Source: an uncultured archaeon
Lineage (GTDB): Archaea; Aenigmatarchaeota; Aenigmatarchaeia; CG10238-14; SCSR01
NCBI GenBank assembly: GCA_964646855.1
Contig: CAZYHQ010000002.1
Span: 9,127 to 73,126, forward strand
Direction of reading: 5' to 3'
DNA: 64,000 nt
Positions 35,208 through 61,977 of the stretch are shown piece after piece. The notes beneath the pieces are model-generated. The model was not told the DNA's origin. It saw nothing but the letters and a program-made list of their open reading frames with translations, and made no database searches. How positions within the stretch are numbered: the first letter of the stretch is position 1; each line of letters opens with the position of its first letter. A program made the position numbers and the translations under genes.

Positions 35208-36209
35208 ATGGCTGAAATTTTAAACGGTATAGTTCTTGCTTTGTTGGCCGGGTTATTTCAAGGAACATGGGCTCTTTTCTTAAAATACACTGGCCCGTGG
35301 AAATGGGAAAATTTTTGGAGCGTATATTCCGTTGTAGCATTAATCGCATTTCCCGTGCTTTGGACAGCGGTAGCAGTTCCAAATTTTGTTGCGATATTAT
35401 TTTCTGTATCCAGCGTAGATCTGTTGGTGCCTTTGATTTTCGGCTCAATATGGGGAATCAGTAGCGTACTCTTTGGGCTCTCGGTCGTACGACTTGGATT
35501 GTCACTCACCTATAGTGTTGTTGTTGGAATGAGCGCCTTAATCGGCACAGTTTCTCCGTTGTTCATCAATGGAATTTTCCCCGCAGGCAATGTGTTAATT
35601 GCTTTCGTAGCTGGTTTATTGGCGATGTTGCTAGGAATAATATTGAGCGGCTATTCTGGCTATGTTAAGGAAAAAAAATTCAGCAAAGTCCAAAAAACAA
35701 CTTCGAAAGCATACCTGCACGGATTGTTAATAGCTATAGCTGCAGGATTCATGTCACCTATGCTGAACGTAGGGTTTGTCTACGGCAACCAAATCAGTGA
35801 AACTGCAATAAAGTTCGGTGCTTCGATAAACGATGCTACTTTACCTGTTTGGATTATAGTACTTCTTGGCGGCTTCGTACCAAACATTTTTTATGCAGTT
35901 TATCGACTTTTCAAAAACAACACGCTAAAATTATTTTTATCCACCAAACCAAAAGCAGCGTTGAGTGCAACGGTTGCCGGATTACTTTGGTTCGGTGCAT
36001 TCGGACTATTTGGAATATCCACAGTACTTCTCGGAAATTTGGGGGCATCAGTCGGATGGGCCATTTTAATGGGCTCGATGATAATCATCAGTAATGGCTG
36101 GGGTATTTTCACGGGCGAATGGAAAGCGGCTAAAAAACCTTTGGCAATTCAACTAGCTAGCATTTTTATTTTGATCGTCGGTATCGTCACACTATCCTCA
36201 ACACTCTAA
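35208..36209 (+). CDS. RhaT-family sugar:proton symporter-like membrane protein
   Basis: 333 aa with about 10 TM helices. The N-terminus GIVLALLAGLFQGTWALFLKYTGPWKWENFWSV...PNF resembles L-rhamnose-H+ transporter RhaT. Confidence 0.7.
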   Translation: MAEILNGIVLALLAGLFQGTWALFLKYTGPWKWENFWSVYSVVALIAFPVLWTAVAVPNFVAILFSVSSVDLLVPLIFGSIWGISSVLFGLSVVRLGLSLTYSVVVGMSALIGTVSPLFINGIFPAGNVLIAFVAGLLAMLLGIILSGYSGYVKEKKFSKVQKTTSKAYLHGLLIAIAAGFMSPMLNVGFVYGNQISETAIKFGASINDATLPVWIIVLLGGFVPNIFYAVYRLFKNNTLKLFLSTKPKAALSATVAGLLWFGAFGLFGISTVLLGNLGASVGWAILMGSMIIISNGWGIFTGEWKAAKKPLAIQLASIFILIVGIVTLSSTL

Positions 36210-36469
36210 ATCAACTGTTCTCCAGTTTCCAGATCAAAAATATGTATGACAGCAACAGGGCAGACTCTTGCTGCTTCCATGTTTGCTTTCAAATCTTCCT
36301 CATCGATTATCAGTTCAAAATTCTTTGTTTTAGGATTTTCAACACCGCCGATTAAAACTGCCTTTTCCAATTCTTCATCCATCTTCCAATGTTTGGGGTT
36401 AGCTACCGCGCACGGTCCGGCATTGATGCAGCCAGCCATGTCGTAAACAATCTTGTATTTCTTGCCCAT
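36206..36469 (-). CDS. Small mono-cluster ferredoxin
   Basis: 87 aa: AGCINAGPCAV ... EAARVCPVAVI, the divergent single [3Fe/4Fe-4S] ferredoxin pattern. Confidence 0.65.
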   Translation of the reverse strand: MGKKYKIVYDMAGCINAGPCAVANPKHWKMDEELEKAVLIGGVENPKTKNFELIIDEEDLKANMEAARVCPVAVIHIFDLETGEQLI

Positions 36470-36473
36470 AGCA

Positions 36474-36554
36474 AACTATTTGCAGTTAAAGTTTTATAAC
36501 GTTTCCGAACCTTCGCTTGAATCCTTTCTTGTACTGTTTATGCTTCTTCTTTTT
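36474..36554. repeat. 81-bp perfect direct repeat, copy 1
   Basis: AACTATTTGCAGTTAAAGTTTTATAACGTTTCCGAACCTTCGCTTGAATCCTTTCTTGTACTGTTTATGCTTCTTCTTTTT is identical to 37574..37654. It begins 5 nt upstream of the ferredoxin ATG. Confidence 0.95.
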
Positions 36555-36590
36555 TCTCTCCGGCATTACTTCGTCAATGTCTAATTCCAT
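36486..36590 (-). CDS. Tentative small basic ORF partly encoded by repeat copy 1
   Basis: 34 aa: MELDIDEVMPERKKKKHKQYKKGFKRRFGNVIKL. The last 23 residues (KKKKHKQYKKGFKRRFGNVIKL plus part of the preceding R codon) lie inside the repeat. Confidence 0.25.
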   Translation of the reverse strand: MELDIDEVMPERKKKKHKQYKKGFKRRFGNVIKL

Positions 36591-36640
36591 TTGTACCACT
36601 AAATCTTAAATATTATAACTACAAGTAATTAATTGATTGC

Positions 36641-37105
36641 GTGCCACTACTGTATAAATTTTTTAATCTAATCGACAAAATCAAACCAGCTAAGACAGCA
36701 TACGCGCACTGTGACATACCATGTGGAATTTACAACAGCTTTCCGTCAATGATGGCAGCACAGACTGTGTTGAAGATGGTCCAAAAAATTAAGGAGCTTA
36801 CCAAAGATCCCGACAAGATGACTGTCAACGATAGAAACAATTTTGTTCGTATGGTTAACGTAAAGGAAGAGCACGCGCAACTCTGCAAAAAAGAAATACT
36901 AATTTTGTGGACTGACTACTTCAAACCCGAACATTTGAAAATGTTTCCAGATTTGCATGAAAAAGTTTGGAATGCATGCAAACTATGCTCGAAGAACAAG
37001 CAGGAAATTAATGAGGGTGTTGCAAATGAGTTAATTGAAGCAGTTCACGAAATCGGTCATATGTGGGAACAAGCTGAAGAGGCTAAAAGGAAAGTTTCTA
37101 AGTGA
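36641..37105 (+). CDS. sodN: Nickel superoxide dismutase precursor
   Basis: 154 aa with a GTG start. A pro-peptide ends ..TAYA, followed by the Ni-hook HCDIPCGIY. ILWTDYFKPEHL matches Streptomyces NiSOD (VLWSDYFKPPHF). Confidence 0.9.
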   Translation: MPLLYKFFNLIDKIKPAKTAYAHCDIPCGIYNSFPSMMAAQTVLKMVQKIKELTKDPDKMTVNDRNNFVRMVNVKEEHAQLCKKEILILWTDYFKPEHLKMFPDLHEKVWNACKLCSKNKQEINEGVANELIEAVHEIGHMWEQAEEAKRKVSK

Positions 37106-37121
37106 TTTTGTGTTTCCCCTG

Positions 37122-37394
37122 ATGCGATTTAAAATTCGAGATGAAAGTATGCTCCCAACTCTAAAGCCAGGAGACTATCTTTTTGTAAATAAATTTTCCA
37201 AAAAACTTTTTACAATGGACATTATCGTTTTTAAACACGATGATAAATTTCTTGTAAAGAGGATTGAAAAAATTTTTGGAGATAAAATTTTCGTGATTGG
37301 TGACAACACATCATCAAGTACTGATAGCCGGACACTTGGTTACATCGATAAAAATTCTGTAGTCGGAAAAGTTCTCATGAAAGCGAGGCAATAA
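37122..37394 (+). CDS. sodX: S26-family signal-peptidase-like NiSOD maturation protease
   Basis: About 90 aa: MRFKIRDESMLPTLKPGDYLFV (catalytic Ser in SMLPT), VKRI, GDNTSSSTDSR. The track ORF (from 37035) overlaps sodN, so ATG 37122 was chosen. Confidence 0.8.
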   Translation: MRFKIRDESMLPTLKPGDYLFVNKFSKKLFTMDIIVFKHDDKFLVKRIEKIFGDKIFVIGDNTSSSTDSRTLGYIDKNSVVGKVLMKARQ

Positions 37395-37398
37395 AACT

Positions 37399-37566
37399 TC
37401 AGACACCTTTGACCAGCACAACTACACCCACAATCCAGAAGAAGCTGTAATTAATTCCAGAATACATAGCAAACATCACGACCCCTGTCAGCACATCAAT
37501 TATTCCAAGTAGGTCGTACTGGAAGCCACTTCCCAGTGCAGCAAGTATAGACCAACCACCTTTTGA
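37399..37566 (-). pseudogene. 5'-truncated paralog of the 101-aa membrane protein gene at 38940..39245
   Basis: Encodes SKGGWSILAALGSGFQYDLLGIIDVLTGVVMFAMYSGINYSFFWIVGVVVLVKGV*, about 70% identical to residues 40-94 of ORF 38940..39245. There is no start codon; the frame is closed by TGA next to repeat copy 2. Confidence 0.75.
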
Positions 37567-37573
37567 TCACATG

Positions 37574-37654
37574 AACTATTTGCAGTTAAAGTTTTATAAC
37601 GTTTCCGAACCTTCGCTTGAATCCTTTCTTGTACTGTTTATGCTTCTTCTTTTT
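37574..37654. repeat. 81-bp perfect direct repeat, copy 2
   Basis: Identical to 36474..36554 and offset by exactly 1100 bp. It abuts the stop codon region of ORF 37660..38256. Confidence 0.95.
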
Positions 37655-37659
37655 AGGCA

Positions 37660-38256
37660 CTATGTCTTCGTTGTTATTTCTAATTGTTGCGGCCCTTCAA
37701 AACTTTCAGAATCACTTGAAGCAATCATTTGTTCTTTTCTAGCCGCCATTTCTTTATCTGAGCTTGATGCTTTTGATGAATGAAAAACACGCACTTTATA
37801 TGCTGTTCCTTGTGAAATTCCCTTCTTTTTTAATTGCCTGCCTACCCATGTCAAATTGTACGGTGATATGTGAAATTTTGAACCCACTGACGTTCGTGCA
37901 ACTGCCTTATTTTCCTCCACATAATTTTTAATTTCTTCCATTTGCCTTTGCAGACCGTAACAATCTGATAATATATCGTGCATTCTTTCCAGAGCCAGCG
38001 TAGCGTATTTTCCTGTTCCTATTCCAGGCTCCTCGCGAACAAGATGCCAGTGAGCGTCTGCGTACTCTGAAAGATTTTTGAACTGGTTGTAATCCGGGGT
38101 GCACCCGAATTTCACCAGAACGTCAGGATTTCTACGCATATATTTACAGAGTGATTTGAGACGTTTAGATGAATGCGCGCCGTTTTTTGTCCTAAAAACA
38201 ACGTAGTCTAAACAAGCTTTTGTATCGAGACTTTCATACATACTTTGCGTCTGCAT
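37660..38256 (-). CDS. Hypothetical protein
   Basis: 198-aa ORF with no recognised family and a Ser-rich C-terminal region. It ends at TAG just before repeat copy 2. Confidence 0.55.
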   Translation of the reverse strand: MQTQSMYESLDTKACLDYVVFRTKNGAHSSKRLKSLCKYMRRNPDVLVKFGCTPDYNQFKNLSEYADAHWHLVREEPGIGTGKYATLALERMHDILSDCYGLQRQMEEIKNYVEENKAVARTSVGSKFHISPYNLTWVGRQLKKKGISQGTAYKVRVFHSSKASSSDKEMAARKEQMIASSDSESFEGPQQLEITTKT

Positions 38257-38276
38257 GAGATATCACATAAAGAATG

Positions 38277-38891
38277 CTACTTGCTGAATCTTTTCTCAAC
38301 GTCGTCCCAATTTACAACATTCCACCATGCCGCCACATAGTCCGCCCTTTTGTTTTGGTACTTCAGATAATAAGCGTGTTCCCATACATCCAAACCTAAG
38401 AGAGGAATCAATTTAAGCGCTCGTGGACTGTCTTGATTAGGCGTTGTAATAAATTCTACTTCGTTGCTTTGCGGATTGAAAACAAGCCAGCCCCAACCGC
38501 TTCCCTGAATAGCTGTCGTATCTTTTGAAAATTTTTCTTTGAAACTTGCAAAATTCTTGAAAGAAGAAATTATAGCATCGGCAATTTTTCCTCCGGGCTC
38601 CCCTCCCCCGTCTGGCTTCATGTTCGTCCAAAATATTCTGTGGTTGTCATACCCTCCTCCATGAAAATTCACAGCTTTTCGTATGCTCTCCGGAACTTTT
38701 GAAATATTTTCGAGGATTTCTTCAATGCTGTTCGCCAGCAACTGTGCTTCTGGACTTTCAAGGGCAATGTTCAGTCCGTTAACATAAGCCTGATGATGTT
38801 TGGTGTGGTGAATTTCCATTGTTCTTGCATCAATATGCGGTTCTAACGCATCATACGCATAAGGCAAGGGAGGCAGTTCATATTTTTTCAT
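38277..38891 (-). CDS. sodA: Fe/Mn superoxide dismutase
   Basis: 204 aa: HHTKHHQAYVN, FNGGG-like HGGGYDNH, DVWEHAYYLKYQNKRADY. Confidence 0.95.
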   Translation of the reverse strand: MKKYELPPLPYAYDALEPHIDARTMEIHHTKHHQAYVNGLNIALESPEAQLLANSIEEILENISKVPESIRKAVNFHGGGYDNHRIFWTNMKPDGGGEPGGKIADAIISSFKNFASFKEKFSKDTTAIQGSGWGWLVFNPQSNEVEFITTPNQDSPRALKLIPLLGLDVWEHAYYLKYQNKRADYVAAWWNVVNWDDVEKRFSK

Positions 38892-38939
38892 AATCCTTTA
38901 TTGAACGAACTGTTTTAAATTCTTTTACGCAGCCGCAGT

Positions 38940-39245
38940 TCACGAGAGTGAAAAAAACGAACTCCACACTCCTTTCAGCAACAGTACTGCTCCAACGACC
39001 CAAAAGAAGCTGAAGCTAATTTCAGAATACATTATGAACATGACAAATCCAGAGAGCACGTCAATAATTCCAGGAATATCAAAATAAAATCCGCTTCCCG
39101 CAGCAGTAAGCACAGACCAGCCGCCTTTTGCCAAGTGGAACAGCGCAAGGTAAAAATAGAACAGCGATCCGAAAATCGGCAGAGAAGGATAAATTATACT
39201 TACTCCTGCGAGGACGTCCATAGCTGACAAAAACATCAAGAGCAT
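38940..39245 (-). CDS. Small polytopic membrane protein (unknown family)
   Basis: 101 aa with about 3 TM helices. A truncated paralog lies at 37399..37566. Confidence 0.55.
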   Translation of the reverse strand: MLLMFLSAMDVLAGVSIIYPSLPIFGSLFYFYLALFHLAKGGWSVLTAAGSGFYFDIPGIIDVLSGFVMFIMYSEISFSFFWVVGAVLLLKGVWSSFFSLS

Positions 39246-39295
39246 TTTGATTTTGATTCACCAAAAATTTTATGCAAAAAATCTAAAAAAATCTT

Positions 39296-42200
39296 TTAGC
39301 TGCAACCGCTAGTCGTGCCGCATGACGTGCACACGTAACACGTGCCGCTTCTGACCATCATGCCTCCGCATTCGTAGCAAGTCGGCGCATCCCCGCTCAT
39401 GTCGAAATTGTCCTTCTCCTGCTTGGTGAAAACTTTTAGGTTCACGATTTCACTGCTTTGAGTTTTCGATTCCTCAGCTGTTTCATTAGTTTCCATGAGT
39501 TTCTCGCCGTTCAGCAAGCCAAGCTCTTTCAAATCTTCCTTTGGAAGGAACTTGAACGCCATCCATTTGAAAATGTAATCCATTATTGATTTTGCCACAG
39601 GCACTTCAGGATTGTCGGTCCAACCCTGCGGTTCGAATCTTGTGTTGGTGAATTTTTGTATCCAGACTTTCAGCGGCACCCCGTACTGCAATCCAACTGA
39701 AATAGCGATAGCAAACGAATCCATCAACCCGGACAGGGTGCTGCCCTGCTTGGCCATTTTGACAAACAATTCTCCGGGCGAACCATCTTCGAACAATCCG
39801 ACATGCAGATAGCCTTCCTGGTTTCCTACTCGGAATTTGTGTGCTATTGCTTTTCTTTCTTCTTGCAATTTTCTCCTAACTGCTTTGAATTCCTCTTTCT
39901 TTTCTCTGAAAACCGCCAGCGGCTGGACAACTTTGCTTCCGTCCCTGTAAAGTGCAACAGACTTGAGCGCGAGCCTCCAAGATTCAAAGTAAACTTGTTT
40001 TATGTCTTCCACAGTTGCGTGGTTGGGCATGTTTATTGTTTTGCTGATGCTGCCTGAAAGCAGCGGCTGGGTCACGGCCATCATTTTGACATGAGCCATG
40101 TAGTCTATGTACCTAACTCCTTTCTTTCCGCACCTGTTCGCGCAATCGAAAATCGGGTAATGTTCCAACTTCAGGTGCGGCGAACCTTCTATTGTCTGTG
40201 TGCCGCAGATGAATTCTGTAGCTGCTTCAATCTCGTCATCTCTAAATCCGAGAGCTTTCAGCAAATTGAAATCATGCGAGGAGTACTGGGATTCTCTGAA
40301 TCCCAACTTTTCCAAACATTCTTTGCCCAAAGTGTTAATGTTGAACACAAAAGACAAATCCAGGGCAGTAGGCAAAACAGCTTCCATCTTAGCTATGTCA
40401 CTATAAGCGAACCCTTTTGTCTTCAATGCGAATGTGTTGATATGCGGAGCTCCTTCAAAAGTTCCGCTGCCGACCACGTATTTTGTCATGTCTTTTATTT
40501 GTTCTTCCGTGTAGCCAAGTCTCTTCAATGAACCGGGCACGCTCTGGTTCACGATTTTGAAATAACCGCCGCCAACCAATTTTTTGAACTTCACTAATGC
40601 AAAATCAGGTTCGATCCCAGTCGTATCCGCACCCATGACCAAACTTATTGTTCCTGTCGGAGCAATCAAGGTTGCCTGCGCGTTTCTGTATCCATAGCGC
40701 TCGCCAAAAGCCAGCGCCCTGTCCCAAGATTCGATTGCCGCCTTGAGCAAATACTCCGGGCACTGCGTGTGTTCTATCCCAGGCGGTACTGTGTTCAAGC
40801 CTTCGTACTCTTCCTTCGGCGCATTGTAAACAATTCTTCTGTGGTTTCTGACAACTTTCAGCATGTGTTCCTTGTTCTTTTCGAAAGCGGGAAACGGACC
40901 GAGGAAGCCTGCGATTTCAGAACTGGTTGCATAACTTTCTCCAGTCATCACCGCTGTTAGCACTGCGGAGATGGCTCTTGCTTTGTCCGAATCGTACGGA
41001 ATTCCCATCAGCATCAACAGCGAGCCGAGGTTTGTGTAGCCCAGTCCAAGAGTTCTGTATTCATAACTCAACTGCGCGATTTCTTTTGACGGATACTGGG
41101 CCATCAGCACAGAAATTTCCAGGACAATCGTCCACAACCTTGCCGCATGTTTGTAACCTTCCACATTGAAAGTTCCATTTTCCAAAAACTTTGCAAGGTT
41201 TATTGATGCGAGATTGCAGGCTGTGTTGTCCAAAAACATGTATTCGCTGCACGGGTTGCTAGCGTTTATCCTGCCGGAAGCAGCACATGTGTGCCAGTCG
41301 TTTATCGTTGTGTCGAACTGCAACCCAGGGTCTGCGCACTCCCATGCCGCTTGTGCAATCTTGTCCCACAGTTGCGCAGCCTCAACTGTTTTTGCAGTTC
41401 TTCCATCAGTCCTCCAAGTCAGATTCCATTCTTTGCCGTTGATAACAGAGTTCATGAAGTCATCAGTCACACGAACAGAGTTGTTTGAATTCTGCCCGAA
41501 AACATGCTCGCCTGCCGACTCGACGCTGTCAGCTTTCACCAACCCCATTTGTACGAGTGCAGAGAATTTTTTCTCTTCGTTGGCCTTCCATCGGACAAAT
41601 TCCTCGACCTCCGGATGATCGACATTCAAAATTACCATCTTCGCCGCTCTTCGTGTGGTCCCGCCAGATTTTATCGCACCTGCAACTTGGTCGTAAATTT
41701 TTAGGAAAGACATCACGCCGCTTGAAATTCCACCGCCAGACAGGTGCTCACCTTTTGCTCGCAACGATGAAAAATTTGTACCGGTTCCGCTTCCATACTT
41801 GAAAATTCTCGCCTCTCTTGTGGCAAGATCCAGAATCCCGCCCTCGTTGACTAAGTCGTCCCTAACTGGCTGGATGAAGCACGCATGGCATTGCGGATGC
41901 GAGTAAGCGTCTGCAGACTGCGTCAGCAATTTCGTATCGGGATCAACATACCAGTGTCCTTGCGAAGGTCCTGCGATGCCGTAAGCCCAATTCAATCCTG
42001 TGTTGAACCACTGCGGCGAGTTCGGTGCAGCAAACTGGTGCAGCAGCATGAACGCGATCTCGTCGTAAAACGCCTTCGCATCTTCTTCTGTAGCAAAGTA
42101 GCCGTACTTTTTGCCCCACCATGTCCAACAGCCTGCAAGCCTGTGTACAGTCTGCCTAGCTGAAGTTTCGCTGCCGAGAATTTGTTTGCCCGTTGCATCT

Positions 42201-42481
42201 AAAATTGGATTTCCGTTTGTATCAAACTGCGGGACCCCGCGCTTCCTAAAATATTTTTGTGCGAGAATGTCCGTTGCTGTTTGCGACCAAAATTCAGGAA
42301 CTTCGACATTGTCCATTTTGAAAACTGTCGTTCCGTCCGGATTCTTTATCAAAGAAGTTCTCTTTGTCCATTTGCAAGTATCGTAAAGATTTTGATCCGC
42401 TTTTGTGAAAAGCCTAGGTATTTTCAAGCCTTTTGCTTCACCAACGAGAGCAACGCGCTGACTTAGATCAAAGCCGTCCAT
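39296..42481 (-). CDS. nrdJ: Class II (adenosylcobalamin-dependent) ribonucleotide reductase, long form with C-terminal zinc finger
   Basis: 1061 aa with an RNR barrel (NPCSEYMFLDNTACNLASINL, GLGYTNLG). C-terminus CYECGGMMVRSGTCYVCTSCG. Visibly GC-richer than its neighbours. Confidence 0.9.
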   Translation of the reverse strand: MDGFDLSQRVALVGEAKGLKIPRLFTKADQNLYDTCKWTKRTSLIKNPDGTTVFKMDNVEVPEFWSQTATDILAQKYFRKRGVPQFDTNGNPILDATGKQILGSETSARQTVHRLAGCWTWWGKKYGYFATEEDAKAFYDEIAFMLLHQFAAPNSPQWFNTGLNWAYGIAGPSQGHWYVDPDTKLLTQSADAYSHPQCHACFIQPVRDDLVNEGGILDLATREARIFKYGSGTGTNFSSLRAKGEHLSGGGISSGVMSFLKIYDQVAGAIKSGGTTRRAAKMVILNVDHPEVEEFVRWKANEEKKFSALVQMGLVKADSVESAGEHVFGQNSNNSVRVTDDFMNSVINGKEWNLTWRTDGRTAKTVEAAQLWDKIAQAAWECADPGLQFDTTINDWHTCAASGRINASNPCSEYMFLDNTACNLASINLAKFLENGTFNVEGYKHAARLWTIVLEISVLMAQYPSKEIAQLSYEYRTLGLGYTNLGSLLMLMGIPYDSDKARAISAVLTAVMTGESYATSSEIAGFLGPFPAFEKNKEHMLKVVRNHRRIVYNAPKEEYEGLNTVPPGIEHTQCPEYLLKAAIESWDRALAFGERYGYRNAQATLIAPTGTISLVMGADTTGIEPDFALVKFKKLVGGGYFKIVNQSVPGSLKRLGYTEEQIKDMTKYVVGSGTFEGAPHINTFALKTKGFAYSDIAKMEAVLPTALDLSFVFNINTLGKECLEKLGFRESQYSSHDFNLLKALGFRDDEIEAATEFICGTQTIEGSPHLKLEHYPIFDCANRCGKKGVRYIDYMAHVKMMAVTQPLLSGSISKTINMPNHATVEDIKQVYFESWRLALKSVALYRDGSKVVQPLAVFREKKEEFKAVRRKLQEERKAIAHKFRVGNQEGYLHVGLFEDGSPGELFVKMAKQGSTLSGLMDSFAIAISVGLQYGVPLKVWIQKFTNTRFEPQGWTDNPEVPVAKSIMDYIFKWMAFKFLPKEDLKELGLLNGEKLMETNETAEESKTQSSEIVNLKVFTKQEKDNFDMSGDAPTCYECGGMMVRSGTCYVCTSCGTTSGCS

Positions 42482-42485
42482 AAAC

Positions 42486-42935
42486 CTATGCTCCTTTCTT
42501 CAACTCTTTGAGTTCCTTTTCCAAGGATTCTATGTCTTTAAACTTTTTATAGACTGATGCAAAGCGGATGTAAGCAATGTTGTCCAATTCCTTAAGTTTC
42601 TCCATTACCAAGTCTCCAACAATTTTAGATTTTATCTCTGTAGTGTCCATGTTTTTCAATTCGGCTTCGATTTCATCGACAGTTTTTTCTATCCGATCTT
42701 GCGAAATTGGCCGTTTGCCACAAGCAGTCATAACGCCTTTCAAAATTTTGTTTCTGTTGAAAGGTTCTCTCCTGCCGTCCTTTTTTATTATTATCAATGG
42801 TTTTCCTTCAAATCTTTCGTATGTCGTGAATCTTTTTTTACAATCATCGCATTCTCTGCGTCTTCTGATTGTTTCCGCCGTCTCCCTCGAGTCAACCACT
42901 TTTAGTTTGTCGCTTTGGCAAAATGGACATTGCAT
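42486..42935 (-). CDS. nrdR: Transcriptional repressor NrdR
   Basis: 149 aa. Zinc ribbon MQCPFCQSDKLKVVDSRE...RRRECDDCKKRFTTYE followed by an ATP-cone. It lies 4 nt upstream of nrdJ. Confidence 0.9.
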   Translation of the reverse strand: MQCPFCQSDKLKVVDSRETAETIRRRRECDDCKKRFTTYERFEGKPLIIIKKDGRREPFNRNKILKGVMTACGKRPISQDRIEKTVDEIEAELKNMDTTEIKSKIVGDLVMEKLKELDNIAYIRFASVYKKFKDIESLEKELKELKKGA

Positions 42936-61859: not shown

Positions 61860-61888
61860 TAGAATAAATTGAAAGTTAAAAATAAATG

Positions 61889-61977
61889 CGCCCTCGGGGG
61901 GATTTGAACCCACGACCAACCGGTTAACAGCTTCACCTGCTATAGCATCGGGTGCTCTACCGCTGAGCTACGAGGGC
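61889..61977 (-). tRNA. tRNA, probably Asn (GUU), with an atypically placed insertion/intron
   Basis: 89 nt: acceptor GCCCTCG/CGAGGGC, D arm GCTC-AGCGGTA-GAGC, T arm GTGGG-TTCAAAT-CCCCC (one mismatch), and a perfect loop CUGUUAA followed by CCGGT. About 17 extra nt (ATGCTATAGCAGGTGAA) lie 5' of the loop inside the 5' anticodon-stem strand. Confidence 0.65.

Follow-up and report, generated by a model that had tools for sequence, protein, structure and literature searches.

The locus described here raises the question of whether a pair of nickel superoxide dismutase (NiSOD) genes lying between two identical direct repeats is a recently acquired cassette, or whether the genes are resident and the repeat is the newcomer. 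Within the window, the whole stretch of 64,000 nucleotides (64 kb) that was analyzed, an exact 81-nt direct repeat occupies positions 36474 to 36554 and 37574 to 37654, with 100% identity and a start-to-start distance of 1100 nt. The first-pass annotation had reported a perfect repeat of this length and spacing, and comparison of the copies confirmed it, with 0 differences over 81 nt. Intact sodN and sodX genes lie between the copies, together with a fragment of a membrane-protein gene. No other long exact repeat is present in the 64-kb window, and a chance origin of the pair is excluded because the runner-up direct repeats are only 29 to 36 nt long at 72 to 76% identity. Beyond the repeat, the similarity between the surroundings of copy 1 and copy 2 was nonsignificant, as 287 of 2000 shuffles on the right and 1316 of 2000 on the left scored equally well. 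An exact 34-mer of the repeat gave 0 matches when scanned against metagenomes and was absent from viral contigs, and an Rfam search returned nothing relevant. The complete identity over 81 nt supports the conclusion that the repeat is recent.

This DNA belongs to an Aenigmatarchaeota-like (DPANN) archaeon; the best matches of its ribonucleotide reductase (RNR), at 66 to 77% identity, are Aenigmatarchaeota or unclassified archaeal MAGs. The RNR gene also served as the anchor for finding relatives, among them the contig L002. The features of the locus are as follows.

36206-36469, minus strand: ferredoxin-like gene, 87 aa, single 4Fe-4S cluster (Pfam Fer4_15, E=6e-8; 67% identity to the orthologue at this position in L002).
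36474-36554, unstranded: repeat copy 1, comprising 12 nt of the spacer between small ORF and ferredoxin together with the small-ORF stop codon and the 22 codons that precede it; colinear with L002 over both borders.
36486-36590, minus strand: small ORF, conserved and highly basic, 34 aa, MELDIDEVMPERKKKKHKQYKKGFKRRFGNVIKL, with a 34-aa orthologue in both L002 and the contig L003.
36641-37105, plus strand: sodN, nickel superoxide dismutase precursor (Pfam Sod_Ni, PF09055, E=2e-41; TIGR02753, 158 bits against a cutoff of 90).
37122-37394, plus strand: sodX, S26-type SodN maturation peptidase, 90 aa (Pfam Peptidase_S26/S24; sigpep_I, 71 bits; TIGR02754, 58.3 bits, slightly below its cutoff of 63.25).
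37375-37573, minus strand: memb′, pseudogene of a membrane-protein paralogue, 5′-truncated at the His36-equivalent codon, with a 1-nt frameshift and a nonsense codon.
37574-37654, unstranded: repeat copy 2, an ectopic, nonfunctional copy of copy 1, with two novel junctions (memb′ to copy 2, and copy 2 to the 3′ flank of p198).
37660-38256, minus strand: p198, near-orphan gene, 198 aa (193 aa if the start is at 38241), with its stop 5 nt from copy 2.
38277-38891, minus strand: Fe/Mn superoxide dismutase (FeSOD), 204 aa, with full-length Sod_Fe_N (PF00081, 2.5e-30) and Sod_Fe_C (PF02777, 4e-40) domains.
38940-39245, minus strand: memb, intact membrane protein, 101 aa, positional orthologue of the RNR-adjacent gene (63% amino acid identity to the 98-aa protein of L002).
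39296-42481, minus strand: class II RNR, 63 to 77% identical to its closest relatives.

That sodN encodes the Ni-hook HCDIPCGIY and is accompanied by an S26-type sodX, as first proposed, was confirmed by Pfam and TIGR models. The hook (pattern H-C-x-x-P-C-G-x-Y) directly follows a 22-aa leader, and the locus thus carries both features that identify a NiSOD system, a Ni-hook after a leader and an adjacent S26-family peptidase. Moreover, sodX adjoins sodN in all relatives examined (L001, L002, and L004). The arrangement resembles the sodN-sodX operon of Streptomyces and marine cyanobacteria in having the hook behind a cleavable leader, an S26-type protease encoded next to it and a TIGR02753 score at equivalog level, but it differs in that the host is Aenigmatarchaeota-like and the operon lies beside an Fe/Mn SOD.

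Comparison with relatives indicated that the bracketed genes occupy an ordinary chromosomal position. The gene order in L002 is ferredoxin, small ORF, sodN, sodX, membrane protein, RNR, and the window is colinear with L002 from ferredoxin through sodX, with 71% nucleotide identity over 1109 nt. In L001 and L004, sodN-sodX lies between GluDH/NADK genes and RNR. The interior of the 1.1-kb unit (the 5′ part of the small ORF, sodN, and sodX) is colinear in L002 and occurs in the other two. The closest homologues of SodN, at 72 to 87% identity, are found in syntenic archaeal contigs, and the nine closest proteins, those of L001, L002, and L004 included, form one clade apart from the remaining matches. 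The few remaining matches with placeable taxonomy are Patescibacteria at about 58 to 64% identity, and relatives in viral contigs reach only 42 to 43%. DPANN archaea have been reported to carry sodN-sodX by way of Patescibacteria, in that case Woesearchaea (bioRxiv 10.1101/2021.01.12.426412), and the present locus is similar in that Patescibacteria are the nearest named nonarchaeal relatives of its SodN. The earlier suggestion that sodN-sodX was a recent horizontal cassette fails on both synteny and the single SodN clade; the phylogenetic check proposed with it returned a vertical archaeal clade. We conclude from gene order and protein relationships that sodN-sodX is a long-standing resident of this DPANN archaeon.

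Mobile elements that could account for the flanking repeats were considered. No integrase, transposase, or site-specific recombinase was found among ORFs of at least 110 aa over 25.6 to 52.5 kb or among the ORFs of the locus, bearing out the absence of integrase and transposase noted at first pass, and neither the 1.1-kb unit nor the FeSOD block was found to be bordered by terminal inverted repeats. A transposon or insertion sequence with a target-site duplication was rejected because transposase and inverted repeats are lacking and the repeat is 81 bp rather than the expected 2 to 15 bp. An integrative element flanked by att repeats was rejected because there is no recombinase and the interior is shared with relatives rather than element specific. 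The locus does resemble Campbell-type or att-flanked integrative elements in having direct repeats around a discrete segment that recombination would excise as a circle, but it differs in that an integrase is absent, the repeat lies within a protein-coding gene rather than a tRNA or att core, and the interior is syntenic host DNA. Integron attC sites have been reported in Archaea, with Aenigmatarchaeota among the phyla concerned (PMC9668308). Like those integron cassettes and CALINs, the locus is from an archaeal MAG and has short repeats that set off a small module of genes, but it has no attC-like hairpin and no IntI, its interior genes lie on two strands, and its repeat is coding (PMC9668308). 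An attC identity was rejected by DNA folding of either strand against shuffles: folds of −1.4 and −2.6 kcal/mol were obtained, and 139 to 145 of 200 shuffles folded at least as well.

Copy 1 had been read as the leader and promoter region of the ferredoxin gene. It does lie upstream of ferredoxin but is not simply a leader, as it consists of the 3′ end of the conserved 34-aa small ORF plus 12 nt of spacer. The small ORF precedes ferredoxin, which is the second gene of the pair, and in L002 the stop codon of the small ORF abuts the ferredoxin start. Duplication of a ferredoxin promoter, for which the TATA-like sequence TTATAAAA in the repeat was a candidate, was ruled out because TTATAAAA lies inside conserved small-ORF coding sequence; this position and the abutment in L002 make an operon of small ORF and ferredoxin the better reading. 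Over its last 27 codons, the small ORF differs from that of L002 by 12 synonymous and 3 nonsynonymous changes. As the small ORF runs intact across the right border of copy 1 and is under purifying selection (12 versus 3), that border is ancestral. The small ORF had no match in Pfam, NCBIfam, PHROGs, or PDB, a degenerate pattern of its C terminus had 0 matches when scanned in metagenomes, and no second copy was found in L002 or L003. We conclude that copy 1, on the evidence of these alignments, occupies the ancestral context.

Copy 2 has different surroundings. Of the small ORF it retains just the 22 codons at the 3′ end, with no ORF upstream. On its left, memb′ is truncated at His36, and on its right, the p198 stop follows after 5 nt; as copy 2 abuts a truncated gene and the 3′ flank of another, both of its borders are nonancestral. 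The locus therefore has the pattern of a dispersed segmental duplication or templated patch, in which one copy keeps its ancestral context while the other lies between two novel junctions. The neighbor p198 offered few leads: a word-based search of 5.8e9 proteins returned only the self-match, family databases and PDB gave no match, and a genome-collection scan found no relative. A HMMER search of 1.84e9 representatives yielded one credible remote homologue of similar length, P0243 (31% over 144 aa), which is encoded on short contigs without a SOD neighbor, and a second, weak match to a 2654-aa protein. An AlphaFold2 model of p198 built without an alignment was too poor for use (pLDDT 46.6). 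We conclude that copy 1 is ancestral and that copy 2 is, to judge from its junctions, an ectopic piece.

The gene fragment between the copies is indeed a 5′-truncated paralogue of the gene at 38940 to 39245, but it extends over 37375 to 37573 rather than the 37399 to 37566 originally assigned. The frameshift in memb′ is one extra A in an A-run, the nonsense codon is a TGG-to-TGA change at 37399 to 37401, and the original stop is at 37375 to 37377, such that the 3′ end of memb′ overlaps the end of sodX. When one A is removed, a gap-free alignment of 66 codons can be made between memb′, memb, and the L002 orthologue, all ending at the same stop. Its differences from these homologues are concentrated at third codon positions, and this bias, with the shared stop, shows that memb′ was functional until recently. 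The "dead ATG-TGA" described beside copy 2 proved to be the memb′ codons CAT GTG ATC (His-Val-Ile) read out of frame. A decay of memb′ older than copy 2, as two disabling mutations against none in copy 2 might imply, was downgraded because the third-position bias points to a recently functional gene.

Evidence for the repeat also came from outside the deposited contig, in the form of Logan k=31 unitigs from three runs (SRR12113420, SRR12113384, and SRR12113383), all of which stop exactly k−1 = 30 nt inside the repeat. Unitig L007, from SRR12113420, corresponds to positions 36525 to 37603 and both starts and ends 30 nt inside the repeat, L008 and L009 stop at 36503, and L093 begins at 37625. 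All four repeat borders are thus found in these unitigs, with the copy 2 junctions in L007 and L093, and the concern that the repeat might be an assembly artifact was answered in favor of a real repeat with two left and two right contexts. Simple duplication of the 1.1-kb unit in tandem was ruled out because L007 passes unbranched from memb′ into the repeat, with no continuation of the memb′ 5′ end in SRR12113420; the repeat alone is doubled, not the 1.1-kb unit.

The reading we favor, to which we give about an even chance of being correct, is that the locus is a chromosomal oxidative-stress neighborhood with ancestral sodN-sodX genes, in which copy 2 is a patch left by a recent local rearrangement. 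The "recent duplication-insertion" offered as an alternative in the first-pass annotation comes close to this reading. Before the event, memb′, p198, and the Fe/Mn SOD would have lain between sodX and the RNR-adjacent memb. A genome with both memb and memb′ is plausible, since the relative L041 has two memb-family paralogues in tandem and L092 has FeSOD, then an unknown gene, then a memb-like gene. No genome with the presumed earlier state (intact memb′ and no copy 2) was found among relatives, the closest of which are only 63 to 77% identical in RNR. A recent break or replication error would have cost memb′ its 5′ third and p198 its downstream spacer, and the gap may have been sealed by 81 nt from 1.1 kb away, a copy of the small-ORF 3′ end with its spacer. 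The probable route is template switching or repair that is microhomology mediated and synthesis dependent. The sole visible candidate microhomology is a possible 2- to 3-nt overlap (GTT/TT) at the junction of memb′ and copy 2, judged from memb and L002. Copy 2 would thus be functionless filler, and the truncated memb′ would afterwards have gained its frameshift and nonsense codon. Two inactivating mutations in the 199 nt of memb′ against 0 in the 81 nt of copy 2 is mildly unexpected if both have been neutral from the same moment. As a by-product, sodN-sodX would now be framed by perfect 81-bp direct repeats, through which homologous recombination could delete or amplify it, and the original proposal that recombination between the copies could remove the 1.1-kb unit is borne out as a possibility.

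Filler DNA and templated insertions are known from SD-MMEJ and MMBIR/FoSTeS in eukaryotes and from copy-choice slippage in bacteria, and MMEJ is known in Haloferax and Sulfolobus. The locus resembles templated-insertion repair junctions in that a nearby sequence is copied exactly, over a short length and in the same orientation, with two new junctions and a gene-truncating deletion, but its 81 nt is longer than most reported patches. To our knowledge, there is no documented archaeal case of an 81-nt templated patch at a deletion junction.

Campbell-type integration of a 1.1-kb circle, the explanation originally put forward, is in our estimate unlikely. It would have a circle carrying the repeat, the 5′ part of the small ORF, sodN, sodX, and the memb′ fragment integrate, or reintegrate by homology, into a conspecific chromosome with the order ferredoxin, repeat, p198, FeSOD. 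Formally, the structure is the product of one crossover in the repeat, the de Bruijn graph loops through the repeat, and excision would yield just such a circle and an empty site. A genome usually has either a nickel or an Fe/Mn SOD but not both (PMC10783094), so strains differing in SOD are conceivable. Against this, one illegitimate event must have stripped the recipient of sodN together with the 5′ half of a conserved gene, and the donor must have circularized illegitimately between memb′ codon 36 and the spacer of small ORF and ferredoxin, for a total of two illegitimate events plus one crossover. Moreover, the interior is ordinary syntenic host DNA and not foreign, neither a recombinase nor a replication function is present, and no contig with the empty site was seen, although the k=31 data would not reveal one. 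Given the recipient and donor required, integration of a circle is less parsimonious than local rearrangement.

A second alternative, which we regard as quite unlikely, is that the block from the repeat through p198, FeSOD, memb, and RNR came from another strain by homology in memb/RNR and an illegitimate join inside a resident memb′, with both SODs kept. FeSOD and p198 are both absent from the RNR neighborhood of the relatives examined, and memb and memb′ share merely 68% nucleotide identity, as xenologues would. The nearest sequences to FeSOD are a small clade of four contigs at 78 to 84% identity, followed, among named sequences, by Nitrosopumilaceae/Thaumarchaeota at about 75%, and an earlier study reported that Aenigmarchaeota received an Fe/Mn SOD (SOD2) from TACK archaea by horizontal transfer (PMC8407114). 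The present gene resembles that case in its nearest named relatives but differs in grouping first with the four contigs. Two of these, L090 and L092, have weakly Aenigmatarchaeota-like neighbors; any transfer is therefore older than this genome. The closest FeSOD homologues (L090, L091, and L092) do not encode memb upstream. An imported block would further need a donor in which the repeat was already fused to the 3′ flank of p198 and was 100% identical to the recipient's copy, yet memb about 32% different from that of the recipient. Consistent with native DNA, the stretch from memb through the spacer to the RNR 3′ end is colinear with L002, and there is no break in GC content across the block.

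The order in the deposited contig could also be one resolution of an assembly-graph loop, the truth being ferredoxin, repeat, and p198 plus a 1.1-kb unit that is circular or amplified in tandem, or else a population mixture, which we consider improbable. The k=31 graph forms a simple loop with a two-in, two-out node at the repeat, where the unitigs all end, and fits one or more 1.1-kb units or a circle plus an empty site equally well; assemblers by default pass such loops once. However, 150-nt reads normally cross 81 nt, so the deposited contig is probably read resolved, and, the four borders being real, the junction of memb′ and repeat holds under any resolution. In addition, a 1.1-kb circle would be without replication genes, and a chromosome without sodN would carry a broken form of the conserved small ORF. 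Last, and very improbably, copy 2 could be the remnant of an older duplicate of small ORF and ferredoxin between p198 and memb′, made identical by a recent 81-nt conversion tract: the small-ORF frame reads, over the five codons upstream of copy 2, EDIVP then KKKK and DEVMPER then KKKK upstream of copy 1, the flanks being identical at 10 of 15 nt after a 6-nt gap (p of about 0.04 by our own estimate, allowing for offsets), but local alignment of the flanks is nonsignificant, the ATG beside copy 2 belongs to memb′ codons rather than to a ferredoxin start, copy 2 is preceded by neither a start codon nor any additional similarity to the small ORF, and L002 and L003 lack a second small-ORF copy.

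The finding is a fairly ordinary one, and it leaves unchanged what is known of SODs and of gene transfer among Patescibacteria, TACK, and DPANN, both directions of transfer having been reported already. Of modest interest is a NiSOD adjacent to an Fe/Mn SOD in an Aenigmatarchaeota-like DPANN genome, since the two are usually alternatives (PMC10783094). It is conceivable, though we think it highly unlikely, that the genome is midway in a change of SOD type, in which a repeat-flanked nickel module could be deleted, amplified, or restored, such that a population could switch SOD metal with the supply of nickel and iron; the loop in three sequencing runs would then be real population heterogeneity. 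Because of the 81-bp repeat, the NiSOD pair is prone to being deleted or amplified. The main value of the analysis is one of correction: a repeat-bracketed gene pair resembles a mobile cassette, yet comparison with relatives indicates that the NiSOD genes are resident and that the repeat is a scar of repair or rearrangement. If confirmed, the 81-nt templated patch would offer a rare view of break repair in an uncultured archaeon.

The exact direct repeat R occurs at 36474-36554 (R1) and 37574-37654 (R2) with zero mismatches in 81 nt and a start-to-start distance of 1100 bp, which bears out the repeat reported by the first-pass annotation. A repeat search of all 64 kb gave runner-up direct repeats of only 29-36 nt with 72-76% identity, and because no comparable repeat is present, a chance origin of R is excluded. 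Pfam, TIGR02753 and paralogy with the membrane protein gene memb likewise supported the reading that sodN, sodX and a membrane-protein gene fragment lie between the copies:

36206-36469, minus strand: ferredoxin-like gene, left of R1
36486-36590, minus strand: small ORF of 34 aa (MELDIDEVMPERKKKKHKQYKKGFKRRFGNVIKL), with its 3′ end in R1
36641-37105, plus strand: sodN (Pfam Sod_Ni, 2e-41; TIGR02753, 158 bits against a cutoff of 90)
37122-37394: sodX (Peptidase_S26/S24)
Between the R copies, minus strand: memb′, a fragment paralogous to the 101-aa membrane protein at 38940-39245
37660-38256, minus strand: p198, an orphan gene right of R2
38277-38891, minus strand: Fe/Mn superoxide dismutase gene (FeSOD), right of p198
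38940-39245, minus strand: memb, intact, 101 aa, between FeSOD and RNR
39296-42481, minus strand: class II ribonucleotide reductase (RNR), beyond memb

SodN carries the Ni-hook HCDIPCGIY directly after a 22-aa leader.

RNRs from MAGs labelled Candidatus Aenigmatarchaeota or "archaeon" match the window RNR at 66-77% identity and bacterial RNRs at no more than about 57%, and the neighboring genes include those for eIF2-alpha, PAC2 and ribosomal protein S2. Judging by these genes, we conclude that the host is an Aenigmatarchaeota-like DPANN archaeon. A bacterial-type NrdR (Zn_ribbon_NrdR plus ATP-cone; 42486-42935, minus strand) adjoins the RNR, as it does in the archaeal relative L002; the best RNR matches after Aenigmatarchaeota come from Chloroflexi and Patescibacteria (about 56%), and an old bacterial origin of the RNR-NrdR pair is suggested. 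The RNR of the closest relative, the NC_groundwater Aenigmatarchaeota MAG L041 (10001-14272), has 1423 aa versus 1061 aa in the window, and its insertion with intein-like motifs is probably an intein that the window RNR lacks. ARAGORN also called a 90-nt "tRNA-Pyl (cta)" at 61888-61977 on the minus strand; given the type of archaeon, a genuine pyrrolysine tRNA is less likely here than a tRNA that is unusual or contains an intron.

Logan unitigs (k=31) of three other sequencing runs encode SodN, ferredoxin and FeSOD proteins identical to those of the window. Unitig L007 (SRR12113420; 1079 bp, window 36525-37603) comprises the 1019-bp unique interior flanked on both sides by exactly 30 nt of R, L008 (SRR12113384) and L009 (SRR12113383) both terminate at 36503, and L093 (SRR12113383) matches 37625-39889 with one SNP, at 37823. 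The SNP (T in the window, C in L093, in 2265 nt) changes a Lys of p198 to Arg. Near-clonal strain variants thus have the same repeat borders. All unitigs halt k-1 nt within R, the pattern of a true repeat node that has two ways in and two ways out, and therefore all four borders exist in the reads. The k=31 graph is a simple loop that fits a single traversal (the deposited order), tandem units, or an empty site plus a 1.1-kb circle, so that one alternative is a loop resolved differently from the deposited order. Against the assembly artefact considered earlier, the four borders stand in independent unitigs.

On the minus strand, R reads KKKKHKQYKKGFKRRFGNVIKL-stop followed by 12 nt, and the small ORF that it terminates ends 16 nt before the ferredoxin ATG. 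A 34-aa orthologue is present in L002 (1686-1790, minus strand) and in the further contig L003, and the last 27 codons differ by 12 synonymous versus 3 non-synonymous changes. The small ORF protein, extremely basic and encoded immediately upstream of ferredoxin under purifying selection, had no match in Pfam, NCBIfam, PHROGs or PDB, and no additional copies turned up when JGI metagenomes were scanned with a degenerate pattern. We conclude that, by its conservation, the small ORF is a real gene and is probably cotranscribed with ferredoxin. Because it is conserved across R1, both R1 borders are ancestral.

The closest SodN proteins (72-87% identity) are encoded on the archaeal contigs L001, L002 and L004. 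L002 carries, in order, ferredoxin (minus), the 34-aa ORF (minus), sodN (plus), sodX (plus), an 80-aa ORF, a 98-aa membrane protein (minus), RNR (minus), NrdR, S2, PAC2 and eIF2-alpha. Window 36207-37306, spanning ferredoxin, R1, the small ORF, sodN and most of sodX, is colinear with L002 at 71% nucleotide identity, and window 38939-39394 aligns with the L002 memb, spacer and RNR 3′ end at 69%. In L001 and L004, sodN-sodX also lies between RNR and the GluDH/NADK/pyridine-nucleotide oxidoreductase genes, which occupy 25.6-33.4 kb in the window. A neighbor-joining tree built from the 60 best SodN hits puts the nine closest, among them those of L001, L002 and L004, in a single clade; of the 51 outside it, the five with a source name are all Patescibacteria (58-64% identity). 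The contig of one SodN match (67%) also encodes a bacterial-type prepilin peptidase. The SodN proteins of the window and L001 (10001-10465 in L001) share 87% identity, while the RNRs of the two genomes (4656-7829 in L001) share only 64%, which may reflect either unusually strong constraint on sodN or exchange among related archaea. Given the shared gene order and the single clade, we conclude that sodN-sodX is resident in the neighborhood and apparently inherited vertically. The recent horizontal acquisition proposed by the first-pass annotation is thus not upheld, and a Campbell-integrated NiSOD cassette is largely refuted, as the bracketed genes are resident and colinear with L002. Any bacterial origin of sodN-sodX would be old, in agreement with reported NiSOD transfers from Patescibacteria to DPANN archaea (bioRxiv 10.1101/2021.01.12.426412).

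R2 carries just the 22 small ORF codons, in a frame that lacks a start and closes 14 codons upstream, and the flanks beyond R1 and R2 show no significant similarity to each other. When one A is taken out of the run at 37560-37563, minus-strand 37573-37375 gives an ungapped 66-codon alignment with memb and its L002 orthologue, memb′ reading HVIKGGWSILAALGSGF...KGV*SFIASLS* and memb HLAKGGWSVLTAAGSGF...KGVWSSFFSLS*. The fragment begins at the His36-equivalent codon, flush against R2; it has the frameshift and a TGG-to-TGA nonsense codon (37399-37401) and retains the ancestral stop (37375-37377). What had been read as a dead ATG-TGA after copy 2 is CAT GTG ATC of memb′ out of frame. Differences from memb and L002 concentrate at third positions (37-38, versus 11 at second positions), and hence memb′ was a functional paralogue until recently. 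On the right, R2 starts 5 nt past the p198 stop, and p198 is not truncated, since its length matches that of its one credible remote homologue. We conclude from these alignments that both R2 borders are new junctions; the simplest structural statement is that R2 is an 81-nt ectopic copy between truncated memb′ and the p198 3′ flank. R2 contains no ORF, terminator-like T-run or RNA family match and appears functionless.

In none of the relatives examined does FeSOD or p198 lie near RNR. Four sequences match FeSOD at 78-84% identity and group with it as sister to a thaumarchaeal set in a neighbor-joining tree; for many Nitrosopumilaceae/Thaumarchaeota SODs the identity is about 75%. Earlier work describes the transfer of Fe/Mn SOD to Aenigmarchaeota from TACK archaea (PMC8407114). 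Of the contigs with the four closest FeSOD sequences, L090 encodes a malic enzyme with 56% identity to that of the window and a VIT1 with 24-33% identity to the VIT1 proteins of Aenigmatarchaeota-like loci. In a second, L092, FeSOD is preceded by the start of a VIT1 gene matching that of L090 and followed by an uncharacterized gene and the start of a memb-like gene. These neighbors weakly suggest related archaea. Genes of the uncharacterized memb family, whose products are membrane proteins of about 100 aa that match no Pfam model, adjoin RNR in Aenigmatarchaeota-like loci, often with a VIT1 iron/manganese transporter adjacent (L041, L010, L011, L012, L001, L004). L041 (15763-16397) has two family paralogues in tandem; given these and the L092 neighbors, a pre-event genome with the minus-strand order memb, FeSOD, p198, memb′ next to sodX is plausible. 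FeSOD is not a very recent arrival.

We favor a single recent event in which memb′ would have lost its 5′ third and p198 its downstream spacer, the gap being filled, through template switch or microhomology-mediated synthesis-dependent repair, with an 81-nt copy of sequence lying 1.1 kb distant, after which the memb′ remnant would have decayed slightly. As no pre-event genome was found, we infer this event. It retains the fallback of the first-pass annotation, a recent duplication-insertion, with R2 ectopic between two new junctions. Three alternatives each call for an additional illegitimate event or for an intermediate that was not observed: Campbell-type re-integration of a circularized fragment into a sodN-less conspecific; arrival of the FeSOD block, by homology-facilitated illegitimate recombination, from a strain already carrying R beside p198; and gene conversion of an older small ORF duplicate, for which the sole hint is EDIVP-KKKK versus DEVMPER-KKKK upstream of the copies. 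Only R is present twice and L007 is unbranched at the memb′-R2 junction, which excludes a plain tandem duplication. R was also compared with the integron attC sites of archaea (PMC9668308) and rejected as one, as it folds into no hairpin. No terminal inverted repeats flank the 1.1-kb unit or the FeSOD block, and no integrase or transposase domain was found among the ORFs of 25.6-52.5 kb, as had been noted.

What the locus shows, we conclude, is a small dispersed duplication: a rearrangement scar within a resident neighborhood of oxidative-stress genes in a DPANN archaeon. R2 makes the 1.1-kb unit a substrate for amplification and for homologous deletion, which would take out sodN, sodX and the 5′ half of the conserved small ORF. 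The nickel SOD (36641-37105) and Fe/Mn SOD (38277-38891) genes lie 1.2 kb apart in one DPANN genome, an unusual pairing given that the two types tend to be mutually exclusive (PMC10783094). In view of that tendency, and speculatively, the genome could represent a transitional state.
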